In this document: one piece after another, positions 8,198-42,420 of the stretch | How positions within the stretch are numbered: position 1 is the first letter of the stretch | Layout: every line of letters begins with the position of its first letter | IMG/VR virus record: IMGVR_UViG_3300020048_000021 | Location: 41,848 to 105,847 of that record | Source of the DNA: a virus | Lineage: Duplodnaviria; Heunggongvirae; Uroviricota; Caudoviricetes | DNA: 64,000 bases | Reading direction: 5' to 3' (one strand) | Position numbers and translations under genes: made by a program | Notes under the pieces: model-generated | Told to the model about the DNA's origin: nothing | Database searches by the model: none | What the model saw: only the letters and a program-made list of their open reading frames with translations

Positions 8198-8225
8198 AAA
8201 CTCTAGAATAATATCTAGAGTTTTT
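8198..8225 (+). terminator. Rho-independent terminator
   Basis: AAACTCTAGA-ataata-TCTAGAGTTT stem with T-tract after the kinase stop. Confidence 0.75.
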
Positions 8226-8250: not shown

Positions 8251-8580
8251 ATGGCTACACAATTTTATAAAACGTTAGATGATATTCTAAAACTAAAAGA
8301 AGAAAACGCTCAGCGTATTCAAGATCGTATGTCTGAATTATCAGAACACACTATCAACTCATCATATGATGATGAGCTAGCAACACTAAAAGCAAATTTG
8401 AAACAAATGGGCGTCAGTGATGGATCATTTGAGGGACAGTCAATTGAAGATAAATTCATTGACAAAAGTAGAAGACTAGAATTCATTAAAGAAAATAATA
8501 TCAAGCATGGTTCGCCACGCTGGTTTAAAGTTATGTATGCCAAACCAGAATTAACGGGTGAAGACCCGTTTGGAGAATAA
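8251..8580 (+). CDS. hypothetical protein upstream of terminase (start moved from 8224 to ATG 8251)
   Basis: The track start lies in the terminator, upstream of the promoter; conserved-looking C-terminus IKHGSPRWFKVMYAKPELTGE. Confidence 0.7.
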   Translation: MATQFYKTLDDILKLKEENAQRIQDRMSELSEHTINSSYDDELATLKANLKQMGVSDGSFEGQSIEDKFIDKSRRLEFIKENNIKHGSPRWFKVMYAKPELTGEDPFGE

Positions 8581-10141
8581 TATGAGTGATAATAATTTAG
8601 TTAGAACAAAAAGCAGAAAGATAGATATAACACAAGATCAAGTAAATGAGATCATCAAGTGCTGTCATCCTCAAACGGGATATCGATACTTTATGGAGAA
8701 TTATTTTTATATACAGCATCCTAAGTTAGGACAATTGTTGTACACCCCCTATCCGTTTCAAATCGGATTGATTGATAACTATCATACTAACAGATTTTCA
8801 GTAAGTATGATGTCAAGACAAACCGGTAAGACTACTAGTGCCGCTGGTTATCTATTATGGTTTGCAATGTTTCATCCTGATCAAACAGTATTAATTGCCG
8901 CTCACCAATATAGTGGAGCGCAAGAGATCATGGATCGTATTCGTTATGGCTACGAGTTTTGCCCAATGTGGTTAAAAGCAGCAGTCGAAACATACAACAA
9001 GGGTAATATTGACTTTGCGAATAAAAGTAGAATTGTAGCAAGAGCAACCACTGAAAAGACCGGTCGTGGTATGTCGCTGTCATTATTATATCTAGACGAG
9101 TTCGCTTTCGTTCGCCCTAGTATAGCAAAAGAGTTCTGGACTGCCATTTCACCTACACTATCAACTGGTGGTAAATGTATTATTACATCTACTCCTAACA
9201 GTGATGAAGATCAATTTTCAAAAATATGGCGTGAAGCTAACAAGAAAGTTGATGCCTATGGCAATGCAACTAAATTGGGTGCTAATGGTTATTCAGCATA
9301 TAAGGCATATTGGTGGGAACATCCTGATCGTGATGAAGAATGGAAAGCAAGAGAAATTGCTCAAATTGGTGAAGATAGATTTAGACGAGAACACGAACTT
9401 GAATTTATTATTGATGAAGAAACACTAATAGACAACATTAAATTGACTGAATTGTCAAGCAAAGAACCATTGTATAAAACTGGTCAAGTCAGATGGTTCA
9501 AGAAACCAACTAAAGATCGAATATATGTAGTGGCATTAGATCCTAGTTTAGGTACAGGTGGTGATCCATCTGCCATACAAGTATTCGAAGCAGATACTAC
9601 TACTCAAGTAGCAGAATGGCGACACAATAAAACTACTATTCCAGAACAAATAAAAATATTAAGTGAAATAAACGAGCATATTATCGAATGTACTAATCAA
9701 CCTAATCACTTGTATTATAGTTTAGAAAATAATACAATTGGAGAAGCAGCATTAATATCATTGCAAGAATTTGGAGAAGATAAGATTCACGGAAATATGA
9801 TTAGTGAACCTAAAAAATTAGGTAGCGTCAAAAGATATCGTCGTGGATTCACAACTACCAATCGTAGTAAGCTAGAAGCATGTAGCAAATTAAAGAATCT
9901 GATTGAAAGTAAAAAGATGAAAATATCAAGCGAATTGTTGATATCAGAACTCAAGACATTTGTGGCAAGTGGTGGTAGTTATGCTGCCAAGATTGGAGAC
10001 ACTGATGATTTGGTAATGTCAACACTATTGGCTGTGAGAATATTTCAACATCTACAAAGTTTTCATGTTAATATCAATAAGCATATCAGAGATCACGGTG
10101 AAATGATAGCTCCAATGCCATTCATCGCGATGATAGGTTAA
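8558..10141 (+). CDS. terL: terminase large subunit (T4 gp17-like); true start probably ATG 8582
   Basis: YPFQ, Walker A SRQTGKTT, Walker B LYLDEFAF, TSTPN, nuclease ALDPSLGTGGD, DDLVMS. Confidence 0.95.
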   Translation: MKTRLENNMSDNNLVRTKSRKIDITQDQVNEIIKCCHPQTGYRYFMENYFYIQHPKLGQLLYTPYPFQIGLIDNYHTNRFSVSMMSRQTGKTTSAAGYLLWFAMFHPDQTVLIAAHQYSGAQEIMDRIRYGYEFCPMWLKAAVETYNKGNIDFANKSRIVARATTEKTGRGMSLSLLYLDEFAFVRPSIAKEFWTAISPTLSTGGKCIITSTPNSDEDQFSKIWREANKKVDAYGNATKLGANGYSAYKAYWWEHPDRDEEWKAREIAQIGEDRFRREHELEFIIDEETLIDNIKLTELSSKEPLYKTGQVRWFKKPTKDRIYVVALDPSLGTGGDPSAIQVFEADTTTQVAEWRHNKTTIPEQIKILSEINEHIIECTNQPNHLYYSLENNTIGEAALISLQEFGEDKIHGNMISEPKKLGSVKRYRRGFTTTNRSKLEACSKLKNLIESKKMKISSELLISELKTFVASGGSYAAKIGDTDDLVMSTLLAVRIFQHLQSFHVNINKHIRDHGEMIAPMPFIAMIG

Positions 10142-10175: not shown

Positions 10176-11681
10176 ATGCCAAAAAGCAGAGAATCAGTCA
10201 ACGTAGAATTAAATGATCTATTAACAACCAAAGGATTTAAAGTTAAACCACTTTCTAGCTCAGGTGAAAACGCTGTTGTGCCAGAAAAGGCAGAAGCGTT
10301 TGAATTTAATTTTAAAAGTGGTGATAAAAATTACGGAACGGTCGATATTACGATAGATGATCAAAATAATTTAATTGTTTACTATAATACCGAAGTTACA
10401 AGAGCGTTAGATGAAGACGAGGACAATGGGGGCTGGGTTAGTTTTATCAGACAATTAAGAAGTTTTGCTGTTCGTCGTGGACTTAAAGTAAAATTAGATG
10501 ACTTGGATAATATCGATTCAGATATGGCAGTAAGAGAGCATAATAGAAAGCTAGACGAAGGTTACTATGGAACTCGTCAGACAAGCTACAGTGACAATGG
10601 CCCAGCCGCTATCAAGATGATCATTAAGCACAACAAGGCTTTAGATGAAAACGATGCTAGATATCGTTATGTTGAAAGAATCTTTTTAGAAAACGAACAC
10701 GGCGAACGAGTTCTTGTGCCTAGTACTAGACCGGGAATTGGTCGTATATTTGCTAGACATCTAGCAGAGGGCGGTCTTCACAATGATGAACGATGGAAGC
10801 ATATTACCGAAATAGTAGAAGATGCTAAAAAGCTGAGTGGATTTGTTAGAGCTACAAAAACAAAACAATTTAATGAAAGCGTGCAGCGAATTGTAGTAGA
10901 AGCTACAGAACATTACAAATTCTTAAGAGAAACTCTTAAGAGATTGACTAGTGTTCGTGGATACAATAACTATTTTGAAAGTTGGACTCCTACTCTGATG
11001 GAAGATTCAGATGATTCTAGTCTAATGGAATTATTTAAAAATAGCTCGGTTGATTCTAGAATAGAAAGTGCTCTTCCTGTATTAAATAAATTAAATTTAA
11101 ACATAACAGAGACTTCGGGTGCTTCGATGTTTGAAAATTGGGCTGATAATATCTTAGATGAAATGTTAAGTCCATCACAGCCAGGACAACGTGGAGACTT
11201 GATTGAGTTACTTGGCCCTGATAGTGAATTTTTGGCTTTGGGACCTGACGCAAAAAATGCACTTGGCGAATTGAATGGATTAATTGAGAATGATAAGCTT
11301 TATGCTAGATTACGTAGAGCGGCCTCTAGAGATACTAATAGAGATGCTCGTAGTATAATTATAGCGTGGATGAGTGAGCAACGTGGCGATGAATATCATG
11401 ACATCTTAGATCAGATAGAGCCACAAAGTGATGATACTGAAGTACCAGCTGAAGCACCAGCTCCTCCAGCTTCACCAGCTCCTCCGAAAGAAGAGCCAGA
11501 GTCAGAAGAAGAGTCAGAAGAAGAGCCAGAAGAAGAGCCAGAAGAAGAACCAGCTGCTCCAGAGATGTCTCAGATTCCGGCACTAAGTGGAGGAAATCAA
11601 GTAAAAGAACATCAACAGAAAAATAATTCAACTAAACTTTCTGAATCACTACAACGAATTAAAAAATTGAGCGGACTATGA
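10176..11681 (+). CDS. hypothetical prohead core/scaffold-like protein
   Basis: Acidic, many LxE sites, Glu/Pro-rich linker, C-terminal LSESLQRIKKLSGL. Confidence 0.55.
   Translation: MPKSRESVNVELNDLLTTKGFKVKPLSSSGENAVVPEKAEAFEFNFKSGDKNYGTVDITIDDQNNLIVYYNTEVTRALDEDEDNGGWVSFIRQLRSFAVRRGLKVKLDDLDNIDSDMAVREHNRKLDEGYYGTRQTSYSDNGPAAIKMIIKHNKALDENDARYRYVERIFLENEHGERVLVPSTRPGIGRIFARHLAEGGLHNDERWKHITEIVEDAKKLSGFVRATKTKQFNESVQRIVVEATEHYKFLRETLKRLTSVRGYNNYFESWTPTLMEDSDDSSLMELFKNSSVDSRIESALPVLNKLNLNITETSGASMFENWADNILDEMLSPSQPGQRGDLIELLGPDSEFLALGPDAKNALGELNGLIENDKLYARLRRAASRDTNRDARSIIIAWMSEQRGDEYHDILDQIEPQSDDTEVPAEAPAPPASPAPPKEEPESEEESEEEPEEEPEEEPAAPEMSQIPALSGGNQVKEHQQKNNSTKLSESLQRIKKLSGL
11490..11552 (+). 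repeat. 12-bp in-frame tandem repeat (T/C)CAGAAGAAGAG encoding (S/P)EEE
   Basis: About five imperfect units seen directly. Confidence 0.8.
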
Positions 11682-12856
11682 GAGCAAAACAATTCATCAT
11701 TGAAAATTCAGAGCCGGTAGGTAGAGAATTTCAACACATCGAAGATTTGGCGTATATATACGGCCCAGAAGGCGCCATACGTGCTATAGAAAGATTAATT
11801 AGAATTAATCAAGATAGCGGACATATGGAAGTTAAGTGGGACGGTAGCCCAGCAATTATATTCGGTCGAGACGAAAAAGGACAGTTTCACTTTGGTGATA
11901 AATTCAGTCGTCAACTTAACACTAGCTCAGAAATGTTATACAAACAGTATGAGCCTAAAGATGCCAACAACGATGATCGTAGAAAATTTGCTGGAGAGAT
12001 GATGGCTTTATATAAACTATATGAAGAAGCAACTCCAATTGAGTATCGTGGATTCTTAGAGTGTGGATTACTATATAAAGTCAGACCAAAATTGGAAAAT
12101 GGAGAATTTTCATTTCAGCCTAATACAGTAATTTATCACGTAGATGCTAATAGTAAGTTGGGACAAATGATAGGTCATAGTACCAGCGCCGCCGCAGCCA
12201 CAGCATATTTTAAAATAATTCCTGGAATGGGCGGTCAACGTGAAGCAGTTGGTGACAAACATGTAGGAATTGGAAGTAGAAGCGTTCTTATTATTCCTCC
12301 TAAATTTACCGAAGTTCAGGCAAACGTTCCAATTGAAAAACTTAAAAGAGTAGAGACTTTTATTAAACAATCTGCTCCTAGAATGGAAGAATTTTTAACA
12401 CCTAGCGAAGAATGGGTACAAACATTTAGAAATGCAGAACAAGCTGGCCCTGCATGGCGTCAAGTTATTTACAAATACGTAAACAGTCAGGTAGATACGC
12501 CGGGAGCATTAGATTCACTAGGATCAAACATGAGTCAATGGGCAACTACTGATATTATATTGACTACTCGTCGTCGACCAATTGCTATTGATAAAATAAA
12601 AAGCAGTCAAAGCGGGTTAAGAGCAACGTTCTTAGTAGTTCGTGCTATTATGCATTTGAAAGATATGGTTATTGATCAAATAGAAAAACCGACACTTGGA
12701 ACTCTTGGCATTAGAGCAGAATTGCCATTTGACTATGGATCAGGAGGTGAAGGATTCGTTAGTGACCCAGCAGGCGGAGTTCAACCATTAAAATTTGTCA
12801 AACGTTCTGGATTTACAGCAGCAAATCGTTATCAAAATCGTGGCGGGAAATCGTGA
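11678..12856 (+). CDS. ATP-dependent RNA-ligase/capping-enzyme-like nucleotidyltransferase (DUF6267-like) with CTS-like N-terminus
   Basis: Motif I KWDG, motif IV GEGFV, motif V LKFVKR. Confidence 0.6.
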   Translation: MRAKQFIIENSEPVGREFQHIEDLAYIYGPEGAIRAIERLIRINQDSGHMEVKWDGSPAIIFGRDEKGQFHFGDKFSRQLNTSSEMLYKQYEPKDANNDDRRKFAGEMMALYKLYEEATPIEYRGFLECGLLYKVRPKLENGEFSFQPNTVIYHVDANSKLGQMIGHSTSAAAATAYFKIIPGMGGQREAVGDKHVGIGSRSVLIIPPKFTEVQANVPIEKLKRVETFIKQSAPRMEEFLTPSEEWVQTFRNAEQAGPAWRQVIYKYVNSQVDTPGALDSLGSNMSQWATTDIILTTRRRPIAIDKIKSSQSGLRATFLVVRAIMHLKDMVIDQIEKPTLGTLGIRAELPFDYGSGGEGFVSDPAGGVQPLKFVKRSGFTAANRYQNRGGKS

Positions 12857-13656
12857 AAATAAGAGAGCTATTAGCTGAGTCAGTTCAGAAAACTGGAAAT
12901 AATGATTCCGCTGTAGTAGGGTGGGGACGTGGAATGGGACACAAAGGGCATATGTACTTGGCTCATGCGGTCATATCTACGGCTCATAGATTGAACGCTG
13001 ATCCCTATTTTATCGTAAGTGAAACCATTGGAAAAGACGACCCGTTGATGCCCGATGAGAAATTGGAAATTTATCGTACTGTATTTCCTAATCACGCTAA
13101 TGTATTTCAAACTGCTAAAAATTTAATTGATGTATTACATGAATTAAACAATAGCGGATATAAAAACTGTATGGTTATGGTCGGAGAAGATCAGAAGAAC
13201 GAATTTCAATATTTACTCAGATACAATGGAAAACCAGCAAAAACAACTGGCAATATTATATATAATTTCGACAAATTAACGGTAATAAGTCGTCAAGAAT
13301 CTGGAGATAAATATGCTAACGAAGCTGGCCCTAGAGCTACTCCAATGAGAGATATATTAAAAGATCCAGAAGCCACTTATGAACAAAAATTTGATTTATG
13401 GCGTAGTAGTATGCCGTCAAAGTTAGATGATGGAGAGGTAGAACATTATATGCAACTTGCAGCAGAACGAATGGGATTTCCAGTAGAACAAGGATTAGAC
13501 GAGGCAGATAATCCAAACAATGGCGGAGCGGGAATGGGAAGTCAAAGTGCTATTCCTGGAACTCCAACTGATCTATCAACTAATGAACCAACTCCCAGAG
13601 AACGTAAAATTGCTGCAATAAACAATAGAAATACAGAAAAATTCATGGGTCACTAA
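12853..13656 (+). CDS. HIGH-motif (cytidyltransferase-like) nucleotidyltransferase with CTS-like N-terminus
   Basis: GWGRGMGHKGH (HxGH), DPL..EK, MVGEDQ, RATPMR; GTGA overlap with upstream gene. Confidence 0.8.
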   Translation: MKIRELLAESVQKTGNNDSAVVGWGRGMGHKGHMYLAHAVISTAHRLNADPYFIVSETIGKDDPLMPDEKLEIYRTVFPNHANVFQTAKNLIDVLHELNNSGYKNCMVMVGEDQKNEFQYLLRYNGKPAKTTGNIIYNFDKLTVISRQESGDKYANEAGPRATPMRDILKDPEATYEQKFDLWRSSMPSKLDDGEVEHYMQLAAERMGFPVEQGLDEADNPNNGGAGMGSQSAIPGTPTDLSTNEPTPRERKIAAINNRNTEKFMGH

Positions 13657-22127: not shown

Positions 22128-22157
22128 TTGACAAAGAGATCATTGATCGTATATAAT
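22128..22157 (+). promoter_or_regulatory. sigma70-type promoter
   Basis: TTGACA-N18-TATAAT. Confidence 0.75.
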
Positions 22158-37469: not shown

Positions 37470-37473
37470 TCGT

Positions 37474-37481
37474 GATAAATA
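37474..37481 (+). promoter_or_regulatory. late promoter GATAAATA
   Basis: 5 nt before ATG 37487. Confidence 0.65.
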
Positions 37482-37486
37482 CTTCT

Positions 37487-37735
37487 ATGAAAAAGATTAC
37501 TAGATCGTTACTAGAAGAACTGAACTCTATTGCAGAAAATAAAGATACAAAACTCATACTAGAAAGTAGAGCTAATAATATCATTAATTCTGCTATTCAT
37601 CTGCTTGAAGTTATCGAAAGAAATTTCACTCCAGAACAGTCAGCAATACTAGAAAAGAAACTCTTGATAGCGATAAAAAATCGCGACAGTGAGAAGTTTG
37701 CTCGTAGTCTGAAACGAACTGGGAACGAACAATGA
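37487..37735 (+). CDS. hypothetical protein (start moved from 37472 to ATG 37487)
   Basis: Track start overlaps the promoter. Confidence 0.7.
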   Translation: MKKITRSLLEELNSIAENKDTKLILESRANNIINSAIHLLEVIERNFTPEQSAILEKKLLIAIKNRDSEKFARSLKRTGNEQ

Positions 37736-40596
37736 AAATTAATGATCTTATATCAGAAAACACCGTCAATGAAGATACTTGGAGTGATCTAGGAACTTTG
37801 GCTGGTAATACTGTTAAGAAAGGTATAAATCGAGGTCTTGATAAAGTAGGATATCATCCAGAAACTGCTAAAGCAGATAAACTAGATTCTAGAGCAAAAG
37901 CCATTGGTCTTAAGATGTTCACAAAGCAACTAACTGATTTGTTAACACATGCTAAATCTAGTGGCATGTTAGTGAATGCTACGAAACCAGATTCGTCTGA
38001 AACAGATTCGTCTGAAACAGATTCGTCTGAAACAGATTCGTCTGAAACAGATTCGCCTAAAACGCCCGCGACTTCAACAATCACTTCGGCCCCAACTTCT
38101 ATTTCGACTACTCCAAAATCTGGTCAGGTCGTTCAGTTTCCAGGAACAAATTTAAACTTTACTTATACACCACGATTTGTAGACGATAATAATAAACTCG
38201 CTCCAGATGCTATAGCAAAAGTTTTAACTCAATTAGGTAATGGTGTTGCTAAAGATTCAATTCCAATGAGTGATCTGCAACGAGCAAGACAATCAATTGG
38301 ACTAACCGAGTCGCTTGTTAAACATAATCGTAGAAATAAAGCATTATTAGAAAGCGTATGTCATTCGATGACTCGTGATCAAAAAAGAATTGTCGAAGGC
38401 ATAACAAGAGAACTTCAGCCATTAATTGAAGTGACCTTAGATCAGACTAAAATTGATCAAATATTTCAGGCTGCCCAACAAAGTGCCACAGCCGCGGGCG
38501 GTAATCGCACCACTATTGGTCAAGTAAAGGATGTTGCCTCTGTAGTTAATGATACTATTAATAAAGCTGGAAAATGGATTCAAGATACAAAGCCAGTACA
38601 GTCATTTGATCAAAAGTTTGAAAAAATTAAAAATAATGTATCACAAAAATTTCCTGAATTAGAAAAAACATTAACTGGTATAGGAACTTGGGCCAAGGCA
38701 AATCCTGGAAAAACTGCTGCTGTTATTGGTATAATGACTGCTTTAGCCTCATTGGCGGGTGGTCCTGCCGGCGGCGCAATTGCTGCTCAAATTCTAAGAG
38801 GTACCTCTGAATTATTGAAAGGCGAAAAGGTATCAACTGCTGTAGGTAAGGGTGCAAAGTCTGCCGCTATTGGTGGAGCATTAGGCGCCGGTATATCCTC
38901 ACTAGGAGATTATTTTGGAAATATTAAGGTTGTTGCCGAAAAGATTCCAGGATATACACAGCTTAGTAGATTAAATTTTATTAAGCGGGCGGTGTCAATA
39001 GGAGGCAAGAATTCTGGAGCATTTTTTGGTGATCTACGTGGATTAGAGATTCCAACTCAGTTGGCTCCTAAAGTATATGCACTTTTAGATCAGACTTCGA
39101 AGTATATCAACGCTGAAGATTGGGCGGGAGCAAATAAATATTGGAATGAAGTTAAAGCTATAGTTGAAAATCCAGAGGTACTCCACGCTGTGGAAAAGAT
39201 AGCTTATAATAATCAAAAATTAGTTGATCAAGCAGTAGCTGACGCTGACAATTTTAAAAAGGTAGCTGACAAGATTTCGTCTACTCTTGCCGCAGCTGCA
39301 CAGGGTGGTGTGGCAGCCGCTCACACGGGCACCTCTGTCAAACCAACAGCTTCGGTTCCAACGGCAGAATCAATTGATTATGACATAACTAATAAAATGT
39401 GGTCATTAAATGAAAGCATAGGTCGTCGTCGTGGCGGAGTTCACTTGACAGAAGCTGGTGTCATGAACGCCATAAAACAAACTGCTGGGAAAGTAGGTCA
39501 ATATGCTCAAACTAAAGGTCAGAACTTAACTACTAAAATTACTGCTAATAAACTAAAACAAGCGTGGGTAAAAGCAGGATCACCAACTGACAGTGAAGAA
39601 ATTGAAAAAGTACTACAGAATAATGGAGTATCATCTGATATTACTAATTCTGTATTTAAATCATTGAATATACCAATCTCTGGATCTTCAGCATCAGAAA
39701 CTACCCCAACATCAGACGAAATTTCATCTGTAGAACCATCTACTTCTGAACCATCTACTTCAACAGCGGCTCAAGTTAAAGTAGAACCAGGACAAAAGAT
39801 ACAATTTCCTGGTTCTACTTTAAGTTATACGTTTAATCCCGTATGGCTTGATTCGAAGAATCAAGCAGCATCTAAAGATGCAGCTAAAGTTCTAACTCAA
39901 TTGGCTAGCGGAGTTGGAAAAGATGCTATACCAATGGGTGATCTACAACGAGCAAGACGATCAATTGGTTTACCAGAAAGCAAACAGTATAGATTGTTTA
40001 GTACATTGTTAGAATATAAAATGCTAGAGGCTGAGCAGATTACTCAAACTACAGAGCAATTTATTAATCAATTTCTTGATACACAAACTGGACAATTTAA
40101 ACACTATGATACCTATTCTAGCAATTTAAAAGTATTGGCACAAAAAGCATCTAAAGAATTTGACTCAACTGGAAAAATTAATCCAGAGACAATGAATAAA
40201 ATGTGGGAAAATCTATGGATGTGGAGCAAGATGAGTGGAGGCGGATCTCATTCTAATACTCAGTCAAGATCATCTAGTAGACAAACCTCGGGCGAAAAAA
40301 CAAACAACACTGAAAAGAAAATATCTTCTGATGACTTTGAGAGAGAATTAAGAAAAAATGTAAATTTAGATATTTCTAATTATTCTAGTAAATCTCAAAT
40401 GGAAAAATCTATCAAATCACTAATAACAAAATTAGATGGAGATTTAAGAAGTATAACCATAGCTCGTGAGATACCAGAAGACAAAATATCTGAGACGTTT
40501 CAGTCGTTAATGAATAAAAATCCAATGGATGATTATGATAAGAGCGTCATTCTCAAAAATTTGTATAATATAGCAAAAACTATAGGAGTAACATAA
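37732..40596 (+). CDS. large CTS-tagged internal/ejection-protein candidate with duplicated module and Gly/Ala hydrophobic segment
   Basis: MKINDLISE start, many LxE sites, two copies of QFPG...KVLTQL...DLQRAR.SIGL.ES. Confidence 0.6.
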   Translation: MKINDLISENTVNEDTWSDLGTLAGNTVKKGINRGLDKVGYHPETAKADKLDSRAKAIGLKMFTKQLTDLLTHAKSSGMLVNATKPDSSETDSSETDSSETDSSETDSPKTPATSTITSAPTSISTTPKSGQVVQFPGTNLNFTYTPRFVDDNNKLAPDAIAKVLTQLGNGVAKDSIPMSDLQRARQSIGLTESLVKHNRRNKALLESVCHSMTRDQKRIVEGITRELQPLIEVTLDQTKIDQIFQAAQQSATAAGGNRTTIGQVKDVASVVNDTINKAGKWIQDTKPVQSFDQKFEKIKNNVSQKFPELEKTLTGIGTWAKANPGKTAAVIGIMTALASLAGGPAGGAIAAQILRGTSELLKGEKVSTAVGKGAKSAAIGGALGAGISSLGDYFGNIKVVAEKIPGYTQLSRLNFIKRAVSIGGKNSGAFFGDLRGLEIPTQLAPKVYALLDQTSKYINAEDWAGANKYWNEVKAIVENPEVLHAVEKIAYNNQKLVDQAVADADNFKKVADKISSTLAAAAQGGVAAAHTGTSVKPTASVPTAESIDYDITNKMWSLNESIGRRRGGVHLTEAGVMNAIKQTAGKVGQYAQTKGQNLTTKITANKLKQAWVKAGSPTDSEEIEKVLQNNGVSSDITNSVFKSLNIPISGSSASETTPTSDEISSVEPSTSEPSTSTAAQVKVEPGQKIQFPGSTLSYTFNPVWLDSKNQAASKDAAKVLTQLASGVGKDAIPMGDLQRARRSIGLPESKQYRLFSTLLEYKMLEAEQITQTTEQFINQFLDTQTGQFKHYDTYSSNLKVLAQKASKEFDSTGKINPETMNKMWENLWMWSKMSGGGSHSNTQSRSSSRQTSGEKTNNTEKKISSDDFERELRKNVNLDISNYSSKSQMEKSIKSLITKLDGDLRSITIAREIPEDKISETFQSLMNKNPMDDYDKSVILKNLYNIAKTIGVT
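37990..38055 (+). repeat. perfect 15-bp tandem repeat GATTCGTCTGAAACA x4 plus partial (DSSET)
   Basis: Units start at 37990, 38005, 38020, 38035. Confidence 0.95.
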
Positions 40597-41804: not shown

Positions 41805-42420
41805 ATTTGATGTAAATTTAAACAAATTAGATCAACGATCTACTCGTCAGATGTTGTCTAAGGTTCGTGGTTTATTAAAAGAAACTAGAATCAGTAATAA
41901 TTTTATTAAAAATCAAACTAAGCCATCTTATCTTAAAATGGTCATGTTAGAGCAAGTACTGTATAATCACTATCAAGATATTAGACTTCAATCAAGAATT
42001 GTAACAGAAAATGAAGAAGTTGAAAAGTCACAAGTTATTTTGGCTGCTCAAGATATGATTGATCAAATTCAAAAAATGGTCGTACAAGTTTCAAAAATGA
42101 ATGCTGAAGAATTGCCAGCCGTTGTGAATGGAATCAGCAACGAAATTGGAACTTCAGAAAGCGAAACGTATCAACAAAGCGTGGCAGAAGCGTTAACTAC
42201 TTTATTACAGTCATTGACTACTTCAAAAGGAAGCTTAACAAGTGCATTGGGTCAAATCACCGGAGAATCTTCTGACGAAGGCTTTGGCGGCGATGATATG
42301 GGTAATGATTTTGGTGGTGGTGATATGGGTGGTAATGATATGGGAAATGAACCTTCATCAGAATTTTCAGAACCAGAAGATCAAGAAGACTTTGGTTCTG
42401 CCGGCCGTGAGATGAGATAA
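41737..42420 (+). CDS. hypothetical prohead core/scaffold-like protein
   Basis: Helical, acidic Gly-rich tail, VTENEE site; ATAAATA at 41710-41716. Confidence 0.6.
   Translation: MKLTDMSQSRKIQTKRALREHFEFDVNLNKLDQRSTRQMLSKVRGLLKETRISNNFIKNQTKPSYLKMVMLEQVLYNHYQDIRLQSRIVTENEEVEKSQVILAAQDMIDQIQKMVVQVSKMNAEELPAVVNGISNEIGTSESETYQQSVAEALTTLLQSLTTSKGSLTSALGQITGESSDEGFGGDDMGNDFGGGDMGGNDMGNEPSSEFSEPEDQEDFGSAGREMR

Follow-up and report, generated by a model that had tools for sequence, protein, structure and literature searches.

Which task might be fulfilled by two overlapping genes for putative nucleotide-transferring enzymes that lie near the terminase gene of a giant phage? The question is raised by a stretch of 64,000 nucleotides, hereafter the window, that covers positions 41,848 to 105,847 of the IMG/VR record IMGVR_UViG_3300020048_000021, a virus record of 169,847 bases with an estimated completeness of about 49%. 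Its source is an uncultured giant T4-related phage. Gene 1 encodes a protein of 392 amino acyl residues of the family DUF6267 and gene 2 a HIGH-type nucleotidyltransferase of 267 residues (Table 1). Both open reading frames, as well as the GTGA by which they overlap, had been pointed out in an earlier note on this DNA and are found in the list of open reading frames and in the DNA itself. We favor, tentatively and with doubt still slightly outweighing conviction, the reading that the pair represents, split into two genes, a phage module of wide distribution whose enzymes are made late, are probably loaded into the capsid, and seal or modify nucleic-acid ends.

Gene 1 matches DUF6267 (PF19782) with 79.4 bits (cut-off 27), residues 19-383 covering positions 5-371 of the 376 in the model, and no other Pfam family. 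A database search provided 82 homologs, 44 of which were aligned, and the AlphaFold2 model built from this 44-sequence alignment has a pLDDT of 92.5 and a pTM of 0.89, with residues 1-11 disordered. Motif I (KWDG, residues 53-56) sits between the model strands 50-52 and 59-64, motif IV (GEGFV) corresponds to residues 357-361 and motif V (LKFVKR) to residues 371-376. Residues K53, D55, G56, E358, and G359 are invariant in the alignment, and the lysine of motif I is kept in 10 further orthologs, including those of cyanophages, a Pelagibacter phage, and Melnitz. The motifs that the earlier note had read from the letters, including HxGH of gene 2, are thus present, and since their invariant residues hold throughout the 44 homologs of gene 1 and 40 homologs of gene 2, they are family signatures and not chance strings.

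In an exhaustive structural search of 48,161 chains with VIA-align, nearly all of the top 31 rows obtained with the gene 1 model are RNA ligases, DNA ligases, or capping enzymes (Z 4.6-7.9). The nick-sealing RNA ligase NgrRnl of Naegleria scores best (Z 7.9), and a small bacterial DNA ligase (Z 6.9), fungal Trl1 (Z 6.9), trypanosome REL1 (Z 6.8), T4 Rnl2 (Z 6.5), T4 Rnl1 (Z 6.1), and the DNA ligases of T4, T7, and human (Z about 6) are found as well, as are capping enzymes at Z 4.5-5.5. Because this structural list is uniform and because the lysine, E-G, and lysine motifs occur in the right order and in the right setting of secondary structure, the predicted fold places gene 1 firmly in the superfamily of covalent (lysine) nucleotidyltransferases, which consists of RNA ligases, DNA ligases, and capping enzymes, as a very divergent member. 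Structure prediction and VIA-align agree on this fold, and the lysine motif is intact, as the earlier note had supposed. K53 is the residue presumed to be charged, and catalysis by gene 1 is presumed likewise.

An OB domain with motif VI is absent from gene 1, which ends 16 residues past motif V, where the model has one helix; gene 1 is therefore excluded from the DNA ligase and capping enzyme families proper and has an RNA-ligase-like build. The best structural matches are indeed ATP-dependent RNA ligases that lack the OB domain (NgrRnl/Rnl5, T4 Rnl2, REL1, the ligase domain of Trl1, and T4 Rnl1; Z 6.1-7.9 over 170-207 aligned residues). Like gene 1, they lack the OB domain and have motif IV as E-G, a lysine in motif V, and, flanked by two strands, a K-x-D/H/N-G motif with its lysine. 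In contrast to these enzymes, to which it has no detectable sequence similarity, gene 1 contains a helical insert of about 120 residues ahead of motif IV, which is peculiar to its family and not seen in classical ligases, has none of the known accessory domains, carries a head-type leader, and has a HIGH transferase as its constant companion, usually joined by a Pol-beta-type transferase. The profiles of Rnl2-type RNA ligases (PF09414 and PF18043) are not matched by gene 1, the likeness to them being structural. Foldseek searches of the gene 1 model against PDB yielded spurious CorA-type rows only (TM about 0.1), searches with both window proteins and with a DUF6267-type profile (A1) gave no match among PDB sequences, and NCBIfam offered nothing useful for the window proteins. 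A weak lead came from the ESM Atlas, where a cluster bearing RNA_ligase scored 0.75. The ligase assignment of gene 1 is one by predicted structure and motifs only. Candidate motifs III (residues 128-133) and IIIa (residues 146-153) were picked by eye, without a residue-level structural alignment.

Gene 2 resembles the PHROG "cytidyltransferase" families phrog_3041 (2.4e-22) and phrog_395 (1.8e-14) and has more than 400 homologs, most of them with more than 45% identity across the core. Its model has a pLDDT of 82 overall and of more than 85 across most of residues 11-210, residues 1-7 being of low confidence. H30-K-G-H33 comes after strand 19-25, and H30, G32, H33, R161, T163, and R166 are invariant in 40 homologs; by its position, the segment G159-R166 might be the counterpart of the phosphate-binding motif ISxTxxR of NMNAT and PPAT. 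Foldseek relates the model to PPAT and NaMNAT (NadD) with probabilities of up to 0.98 (E 6e-3 for PPAT), and VIA-align to the NMNAT NadM (Z 9.2; 155 residues, 3.3 Å), NadD (Z 8.8), PPAT (Z 8.8), and an archaeal NMNAT (Z 8.6). Gene 2 itself stays below every curated NMNAT threshold and below that of PF01467. The latter family is matched by the orthologs of MED4-213 (21.0 bits, cut-off 21) and Melnitz (27.4 bits), the Melnitz ortholog has weak matches to NCBIfam NMNAT models far below the cut-off, and one cyanophage ortholog is annotated as NadR-like. The predicted structure is clearly the Rossmann-like one of a HIGH nucleotidyltransferase, nearest to NMNAT, NaMNAT, and PPAT, and prediction, Foldseek, and VIA-align concur here with the earlier note. 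NadM, NadD, the NadR domain, and CoaD have the fold and the HxGH motif in common with gene 2, from which the NMNAT/PPAT enzymes differ by an identity of only about 10-15% and by its long disordered C-terminal tail and phage-specific leader. In part of the gene 2 family, this disordered tail is a common one with A-D-N-P, I-P-G-T-P, and a final F-M-G-H.

The two genes are adjacent or fused in hundreds of aquatic phages. Many homologs of gene 1 are 630-680 residues long and represent fusions of gene 1 with gene 2, as in P0005, whose first 400 residues resemble gene 1 (71% identity) and whose remainder resembles gene 2 (61%). Relatives at 57-71% identity possess a single fused frame where the window has GTGA. 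A sequencing frameshift in a fused gene was considered as the origin of the split and rejected, as independent metagenomes (L007, P0003/P0004, P0085-P0088) also show two separate proteins with the 4-base overlap. From IMG/VR, 80 loci were collected with a DUF6267 profile and 76 with a gene 2 profile. In 20 of the 21 closest DUF6267 loci, the transferase is fused, overlapping, or no more than 2.4 kb away, the exception being a truncated contig. At gene 2 loci, DUF6267 is fused in 13/76 and next door in 61/76 (together 74/76), and the two loci without it have little upstream sequence. Among cultured phages, the two genes adjoin or overlap in MED4-213, P-SSM4, S-RIM2, and S-SZBM1, and one or two genes separate them in Melnitz and in Pelagibacter phage HTVC008M. 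The earlier note would have given up its proposal if the ligase fold or a covalent enzyme-NMP adduct had been missing and the genes had been unlinked in relatives; a ligase fold is predicted, and the genes are very tightly linked, being fused or adjacent in relatives and adjacent in cultured cyanophages.

DUF6267 occurs in essentially all T4-like cyanophages of the phage collection that was searched, in which 456 of the 471 matching records are Synechococcus or Prochlorococcus phages, and in at least 575 viral metagenome contigs. In cyanomyoviruses, the pair corresponds to T4-GC71 (hypothetical, DUF6267) and T4-GC190 ("cytitidyltransferase"), according to the P-SSM4 labels; families and order are the same, and the genes overlap or are adjacent. 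Identity between the cyanophage pair and the window proteins is 22-32% only. The cyanophage copies differ from those of the window in that they follow primase-helicase genes, are leaderless, and have a motif of the type G-R-F-x-P-x-T-x-G-H instead of the window variant. In many viral contigs, too, DUF6267 lies just downstream of primase-helicase genes. Published papers treat the cyanophage cytidylyltransferase as an auxiliary metabolic gene without known role.

A usual third partner of the pair had been missed by the earlier note. A module of about 250 residues is encoded just upstream of DUF6267, or fused to it, at most loci of either collection (DUF6267, 64/80; gene 2, 57/76). Its invariant residues, G...G...G-D-x-D and a later Asp, constitute a signature of the Pol-beta superfamily; it has no Pfam match, a profile search of PDB was negative, and we call it Pol-beta-type, and no more, on its motifs. 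On one contig, the Pol-beta-type module, DUF6267, and the HIGH transferase form a single frame of 941 residues. A further frame of 1428 residues (L060:3-4289) joins HAD-like (DUF2608) and HD phosphohydrolase domains with the Pol-beta-type module and DUF6267 and looks like an end-healing plus end-sealing set or like a cargo polyprotein. African swine fever virus, with Pol X and a DNA ligase for fill-and-seal repair, offers a comparison, since relatives of the window pair DUF6267 with a small Pol-beta-type transferase (G-S/T...S-G-D-x-D and a third Asp), a likeness that comes from motifs only.

The Pol-beta-type partner was not found in the 169,847-base record, which is about 49% complete, and the window shares this reduced two-gene form with its nearest relatives L007 and L093-L101. 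In many relatives, the slot behind the helicase gene holds the Pol-beta-type module and DUF6267. The corresponding slot of the window, after primase, helicase, and a virion protein of 87 residues, is filled by a leader-tagged protein of 954 residues without family matches (37472-40596). It seems that either the ligase pair has moved to the terminase operon or the content of the slot has been replaced. Remote versions exist in Pseudomonas phage PA5oct (L087, 3306-4646 and 5902-6615), where the ligase-like gp256 occurs with the Pol-beta-type homolog gp253, and in Sinorhizobium phage Phosso (L088, 4806-6041 and 5998-6858), where a ligase-like gene stands beside a Pol-beta-type homolog. These ligase-like proteins of PA5oct and Phosso have clear K-x-D-G, E-G, and K-x-V-D-K motifs, and they occupy the slot after the helicase, as in the relatives. 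PA5oct gp257 and gp278 were tried as hidden DUF6267 homologs and rejected in favor of gp256 as the remote relative.

In the window, every gene around the pair is carried on the plus strand. TerL has about 50% identity to TerL of the jumbo phage PA5oct and its relatives and is followed by the gene for a 501-residue virion structural protein, whose stop overlaps the start of gene 1 by ATGA; the order of TerL, a gene of the 501-residue type, and DUF6267 is also found in the relatives L007, L012, L019, and L023. A hairpin ahead of TerL likely ends the preceding transcription unit. From the TerL gene to the end of gene 2, no terminator-like site is present on the plus strand, save one low-stringency match within the 501-residue gene. 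Because of these gene overlaps and because no terminator-like site intervenes, the pair is most simply read as belonging to a late operon together with the packaging enzyme. The T4 late-promoter consensus TATAAATA is not enriched in the window, which contains neither a tRNA nor a tmRNA gene. A consensus sigma-70-like promoter was found only at 22128, upstream of the gp32-like gene, and marks a border between the late cargo/packaging block and the early/middle replication genes.

Gene 2 is separated by two bases from the first of three Amidoligase_2 genes. The earlier note was right that this trio directly follows the pair. A link between trio and pair is not supported: the trio was rejected as a part of the module, since it follows the pair only here and in the closest relative, L007. 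The content of this slot varies, an FG-GAP-repeat protein being encoded in one clade (L018:2210-4597), two methyltransferase-like genes in another (L012:10075-11455), and the amidoligases here, and this stretch, bounded by the virion gene and gp32, has the look of a hot spot of cargo-like genes.

Table 1. Features of the window and of the third module. Positions refer to the window unless a locus handle (L) precedes them.
Feature	Position	Strand	Remark
Methyltransferase-like gene		+	First in the local gene order, before the small leader-tagged gene
Small leader-tagged gene		+	Between the methyltransferase-like gene and the hairpin; a kinase according to the earlier note; no family match
Hairpin, 10-base-pair stem	8198-8223		Between the small leader-tagged gene and the open reading frame preceding TerL
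Open reading frame of 118 residues		+	Upstream of TerL
TerL gene	8558-10141	+	phrog_36964
Gene of 501 residues, virion structural protein family	10176-11681	+	phrog_13484; follows the TerL gene
Gene 1, DUF6267 ligase-like protein, 392 residues, ATG start	11678-12856	+	PF19782; model; structural search
Leader of gene 1, residues 1-9	11678-11704	+	Resembles T4-type head-targeting/processing leaders; ends hydrophobic-x-Glu
Motif I, K53-W-D-G, presumed nucleotidyl-lysine site	11834-11845	+	Invariant in the alignment
Helical insert, residues about 219-341 (about 120 residues)	12332-12700	+	Between the strands carrying motifs IIIa and IV; model
Motif IV (E358-G359) and motif V (K372...K375)	12746-12805	+	
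Gene 2, HIGH-type nucleotidyltransferase, 267 residues, GTG start	12853-13656	+	Cyanophage "cytidylyltransferase" family
GTGA, overlap of gene 1 stop and gene 2 start	12853-12856	+	Joint between gene 1 and gene 2
Leader of gene 2, residues 1-9	12853-12879	+	Nearly the cleaved leader of T4 gp24
First strand and HxGH motif (H30, G32, H33)	12919-12951	+	Invariant in 40 homologs
Second conserved motif, G159-R166	13327-13350	+	Eight consecutive invariant columns
Low-confidence C-terminal tail ending K-F-M-G-H	13495-13656	+	End motif recurs in part of the family
Three amidoligase genes	Starts 13659, 16783, 19614	+	All match Pfam Amidoligase_2
Sigma-70-type promoter, perfect (12 of 12)	22128-22157		Just upstream of the gp32-like gene
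gp32-like and UvsX-like genes	Downstream of the 22128 promoter		
Pol-beta-type module	L028-L086, e.g., L055:5763-6530, L031:7124-8011		Fused in L018, L021, L028, L060, L077

That the enzymes might travel in the capsid is suggested by their first 9-10 residues, which in both window proteins show the pattern K/R-x-x-E/Q/D-hydrophobic-hydrophobic-x-E/Q of the IPII, IPIII, Alt, and gp24 leaders as translated from the T4 record. The earlier note had spoken of capsid-targeting leaders on both proteins, and as a pattern these are real: they start 7 of the 52 plus-strand genes of the window as compared to about 0.005 expected from the internal frequency, a contrast inflated in its significance by the fact that the pattern was set after the genes had been seen. 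Capsid-targeting leaders of T4 are processed by the gp21 protease. The likeness to T4 IPI-III, Alt, and gp24, of which the gp24 leader is almost that of gene 2, is one of sequence, and the cargo would consist of large enzymes, in contrast to the small basic internal proteins of T4. Leader-like starts occur in 31 of 44 DUF6267 homologs and in 21 of 40 gene 2 homologs. In all 22 fused forms examined (22/22), the first strand of the transferase is preceded, at a distance of 6-12 residues, by a retained hydrophobic-x-Glu, at the position where the leader is situated in the split form.

In purified virions of cyanophage S-SZBM1, a "cytidylyltransferase" of 362 residues was detected with two peptides, as was the product of the next gene (PMC9146016); by length and position, this protein is encoded by the gene next to DUF6267. 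The Pol-beta-type homolog gp253 is marked in the PA5oct record as a virion protein confirmed by mass spectrometry. Because of the T4-like leaders, the late operon shared with the terminase gene, and the virion proteomics of an ortholog in another phage, we infer that the window proteins are probably packaged and injected.

On these folds, conserved catalytic residues, gene linkage, and operon layout, a sequence of events can be proposed. The pair would be made late on one transcript with the terminase and the virion protein, and both proteins would be loaded into the prohead, trimmed after hydrophobic-x-Glu, and delivered with the DNA. K53 would accept AMP from ATP or NAD+ and hand it to a 5'-phosphate end, by which a nick or break in DNA or RNA would be sealed or a 5' end adenylylated. 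The HIGH enzyme might make or recycle the adenylate donor, for example by converting NMN and ATP to NAD+, or might itself adenylylate or modify a phosphate end, and the Pol-beta-type enzyme, where present, would fill or extend 3' ends. A flavor of repair is added by the relative in which a single frame unites DUF6267 with HAD-like, HD, and Pol-beta-type domains. Ligation as the chemistry, this division of labor, and the "two-step" pathway of the earlier note are something that we only infer.

In a bolder version, which seems unlikely to us, the pair would enter the cell together with the genome as a ready-made and self-sustaining apparatus for sealing, in which the NMNAT-like enzyme regenerates the adenylate donor of the ligase or adenylylates 5'-phosphate ends. 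The ligase-fold enzyme would then use NAD+ and return NMN for recycling by gene 2, and repair of nicks in the giant genome as it enters, or of RNAs cut by the host, would precede the expression of any phage gene. If this were true, the ligase family would be a new one with its cofactor cycle built in, and phages would be known to inject a further, new class of cargo.

Several observations weigh against a packaged end-sealing module. The structural Z values of gene 1 are middling (5-8), none of the 44 aligned DUF6267 members matched a Pfam ligase family, PF01068 included, at E ≤10, and hhalign of the DUF6267 profile with T4 Rnl2, Rnl1, gp30, and a 21-sequence Rnl2 alignment gave probabilities below 1%. 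The presumed acidic residue of motif III (12059-12076) is placed two positions earlier, at E128, in gene 1 and its closest relatives, most of the DUF6267 family having Asp at the position of G130. Linkage is looser in the reverse direction, with 59 of 80 DUF6267 loci lacking a gene 2 homolog within 8 kb, and unrelated enzymes, among them Cu/Zn superoxide dismutase, occur as fusion partners of DUF6267 as well. As to packaging, DUF6267 is missing from the S-SZBM1 virion list, in which the cytidylyltransferase is represented by its two peptides (PMC9146016), and the core cyanophage orthologs are without leader. A clear prohead protease of the T4 type was not found in the 169,847-base record, which is about 49% complete; the only match, a weak one to Peptidase_S77, the gp21 family (16.8 bits), lies in an open reading frame of 129 residues outside the window (G000:C1:144291-144680; L005:1459-1848), which is too short for a whole protease.

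Among the alternatives, DUF6267 could stand in for T4 gp30 as a non-orthologous DNA ligase of replication or recombination, the one that is "missing" from T4-like aquatic phages, and act in the infected cell on Okazaki fragments and recombination nicks, not as cargo. It would suit this idea that, with T4 as positive control, MED4-213 and Melnitz yielded no canonical DNA ligase domain (PF01068 and PF01653 searched), S-SZBM1 and HTVC008M no PF01068 ligase (PF01068 only searched), and the partial records G000 and G001 no canonical ligase, that gp30 is listed among the genes absent from some marine cyanophages in a review of T4 relatives (PMC2993671), and that DUF6267 follows the primase-helicase genes in cyanophages and many viral contigs. 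However, a canonical ligase accompanies a strong DUF6267 in Stenotrophomonas phage DLP6, PA5oct combines a canonical ligase with its remote ligase-like gene, gene 1 is devoid of the OB domain and motif VI and resides here in the terminase operon with a head-type leader, and the tight coupling to the HIGH transferase would be left unexplained, which makes a replicative ligase unlikely in our view. We attribute a similarly small likelihood to the idea that the two proteins are linked only as capsid cargo, having been joined or juxtaposed for loading on one leader, to be cut apart by the head protease and to meet unrelated targets in the host. The hydrophobic-x-Glu at the joint of all fused forms would fit such an arrangement, as would the varying cargo-like genes after the pair (amidoligases, methyltransferases, FG-GAP protein) and the other fusion partners of DUF6267, namely superoxide dismutase, HD and HAD-like domains, and long unassigned tails. 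Clusters of the ESM Atlas contain a fusion of DUF6267 with Cu/Zn superoxide dismutase (547 residues, 65 members) and DUF6267 with long tails (990 residues). DUF6267 fusions thus suggest that unrelated cargo is often joined, and because some of them look like cargo polyproteins of unrelated enzymes, fusion alone is no proof of a common pathway. Yet DUF6267 is a far more constant neighbor of gene 2 (74/76 loci) than any other gene, and the pair stays adjacent in cyanophages whose copies are leaderless.

Gene 2 itself invites another explanation, according to which the HIGH enzyme is a true NMNAT, or an enzyme like PPAT or FAD synthase, that counters NAD-depleting defenses by rebuilding NAD+ or a dinucleotide related to it, with the ligase-like protein as an accessory adenylyl carrier. 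Its best full-domain structural neighbors are NMNAT/NaMNAT and PPAT, and the NadR-like annotation of one cyanophage ortholog and the weak NMNAT-model matches of the Melnitz ortholog point the same way. In contrast, no partner for NAD salvage (Nampt, Nudix, ADP-ribose pyrophosphokinase) was seen beside the pair, gene 2 remains below the curated thresholds mentioned above, and the constant partners, a ligase fold and a Pol-beta-type transferase, are both typical of nucleic-acid work, so that a role in cofactor metabolism appears improbable. The HIGH enzymes NMNAT and PPAT couple a nucleotide to a phosphate, a cap-like chemistry, and the pair might accordingly build or edit unusual 5' ends, such as NAD-type or adenylylated caps, on RNA of the phage or its host or at the ends of the entering genome, and shield these from nucleases or sensors without any joining of strands. 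Capping enzymes do share the predicted fold of gene 1, and delivery together with the DNA would suit a protection of ends. But capping enzymes need the OB domain with motif VI that gene 1 lacks, they are outscored by RNA ligases in the comparison with the gene 1 model, and the conserved core includes no methyltransferase or triphosphatase partner; we consider end capping just as improbable. An end-sealing or end-modifying module thus remains the reading that we prefer, with the reservation expressed at the outset.

Regardless of the reaction, the conserved uncharacterized module contains a new architectural variant of the ligase superfamily, one that lacks the OB domain, possesses a helical insert, and, at the loci retrieved with the NMNAT-like enzyme, is almost constantly partnered by it. 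The window holds the split form of the module without the third partner. No paper naming DUF6267 turned up in a literature search. No recognized DNA ligase was encountered in any genome of the cyanophage group that was checked (five for the ATP-dependent family), and the analysis provides a testable function for a gene that is close to being core in viruses ranking among the most abundant of the sea. Cultured carriers of the genes, Stenotrophomonas phage DLP6 and cyanophage S-SZBM1, together with Pseudomonas phage PA5oct and its remote versions, make the question directly accessible to experiment. If packaging holds, T4-related giant phages would inject enzymes that repair nucleic acids or modify their ends, and the repertoire of virion-delivered proteins would be wider than the one known so far.

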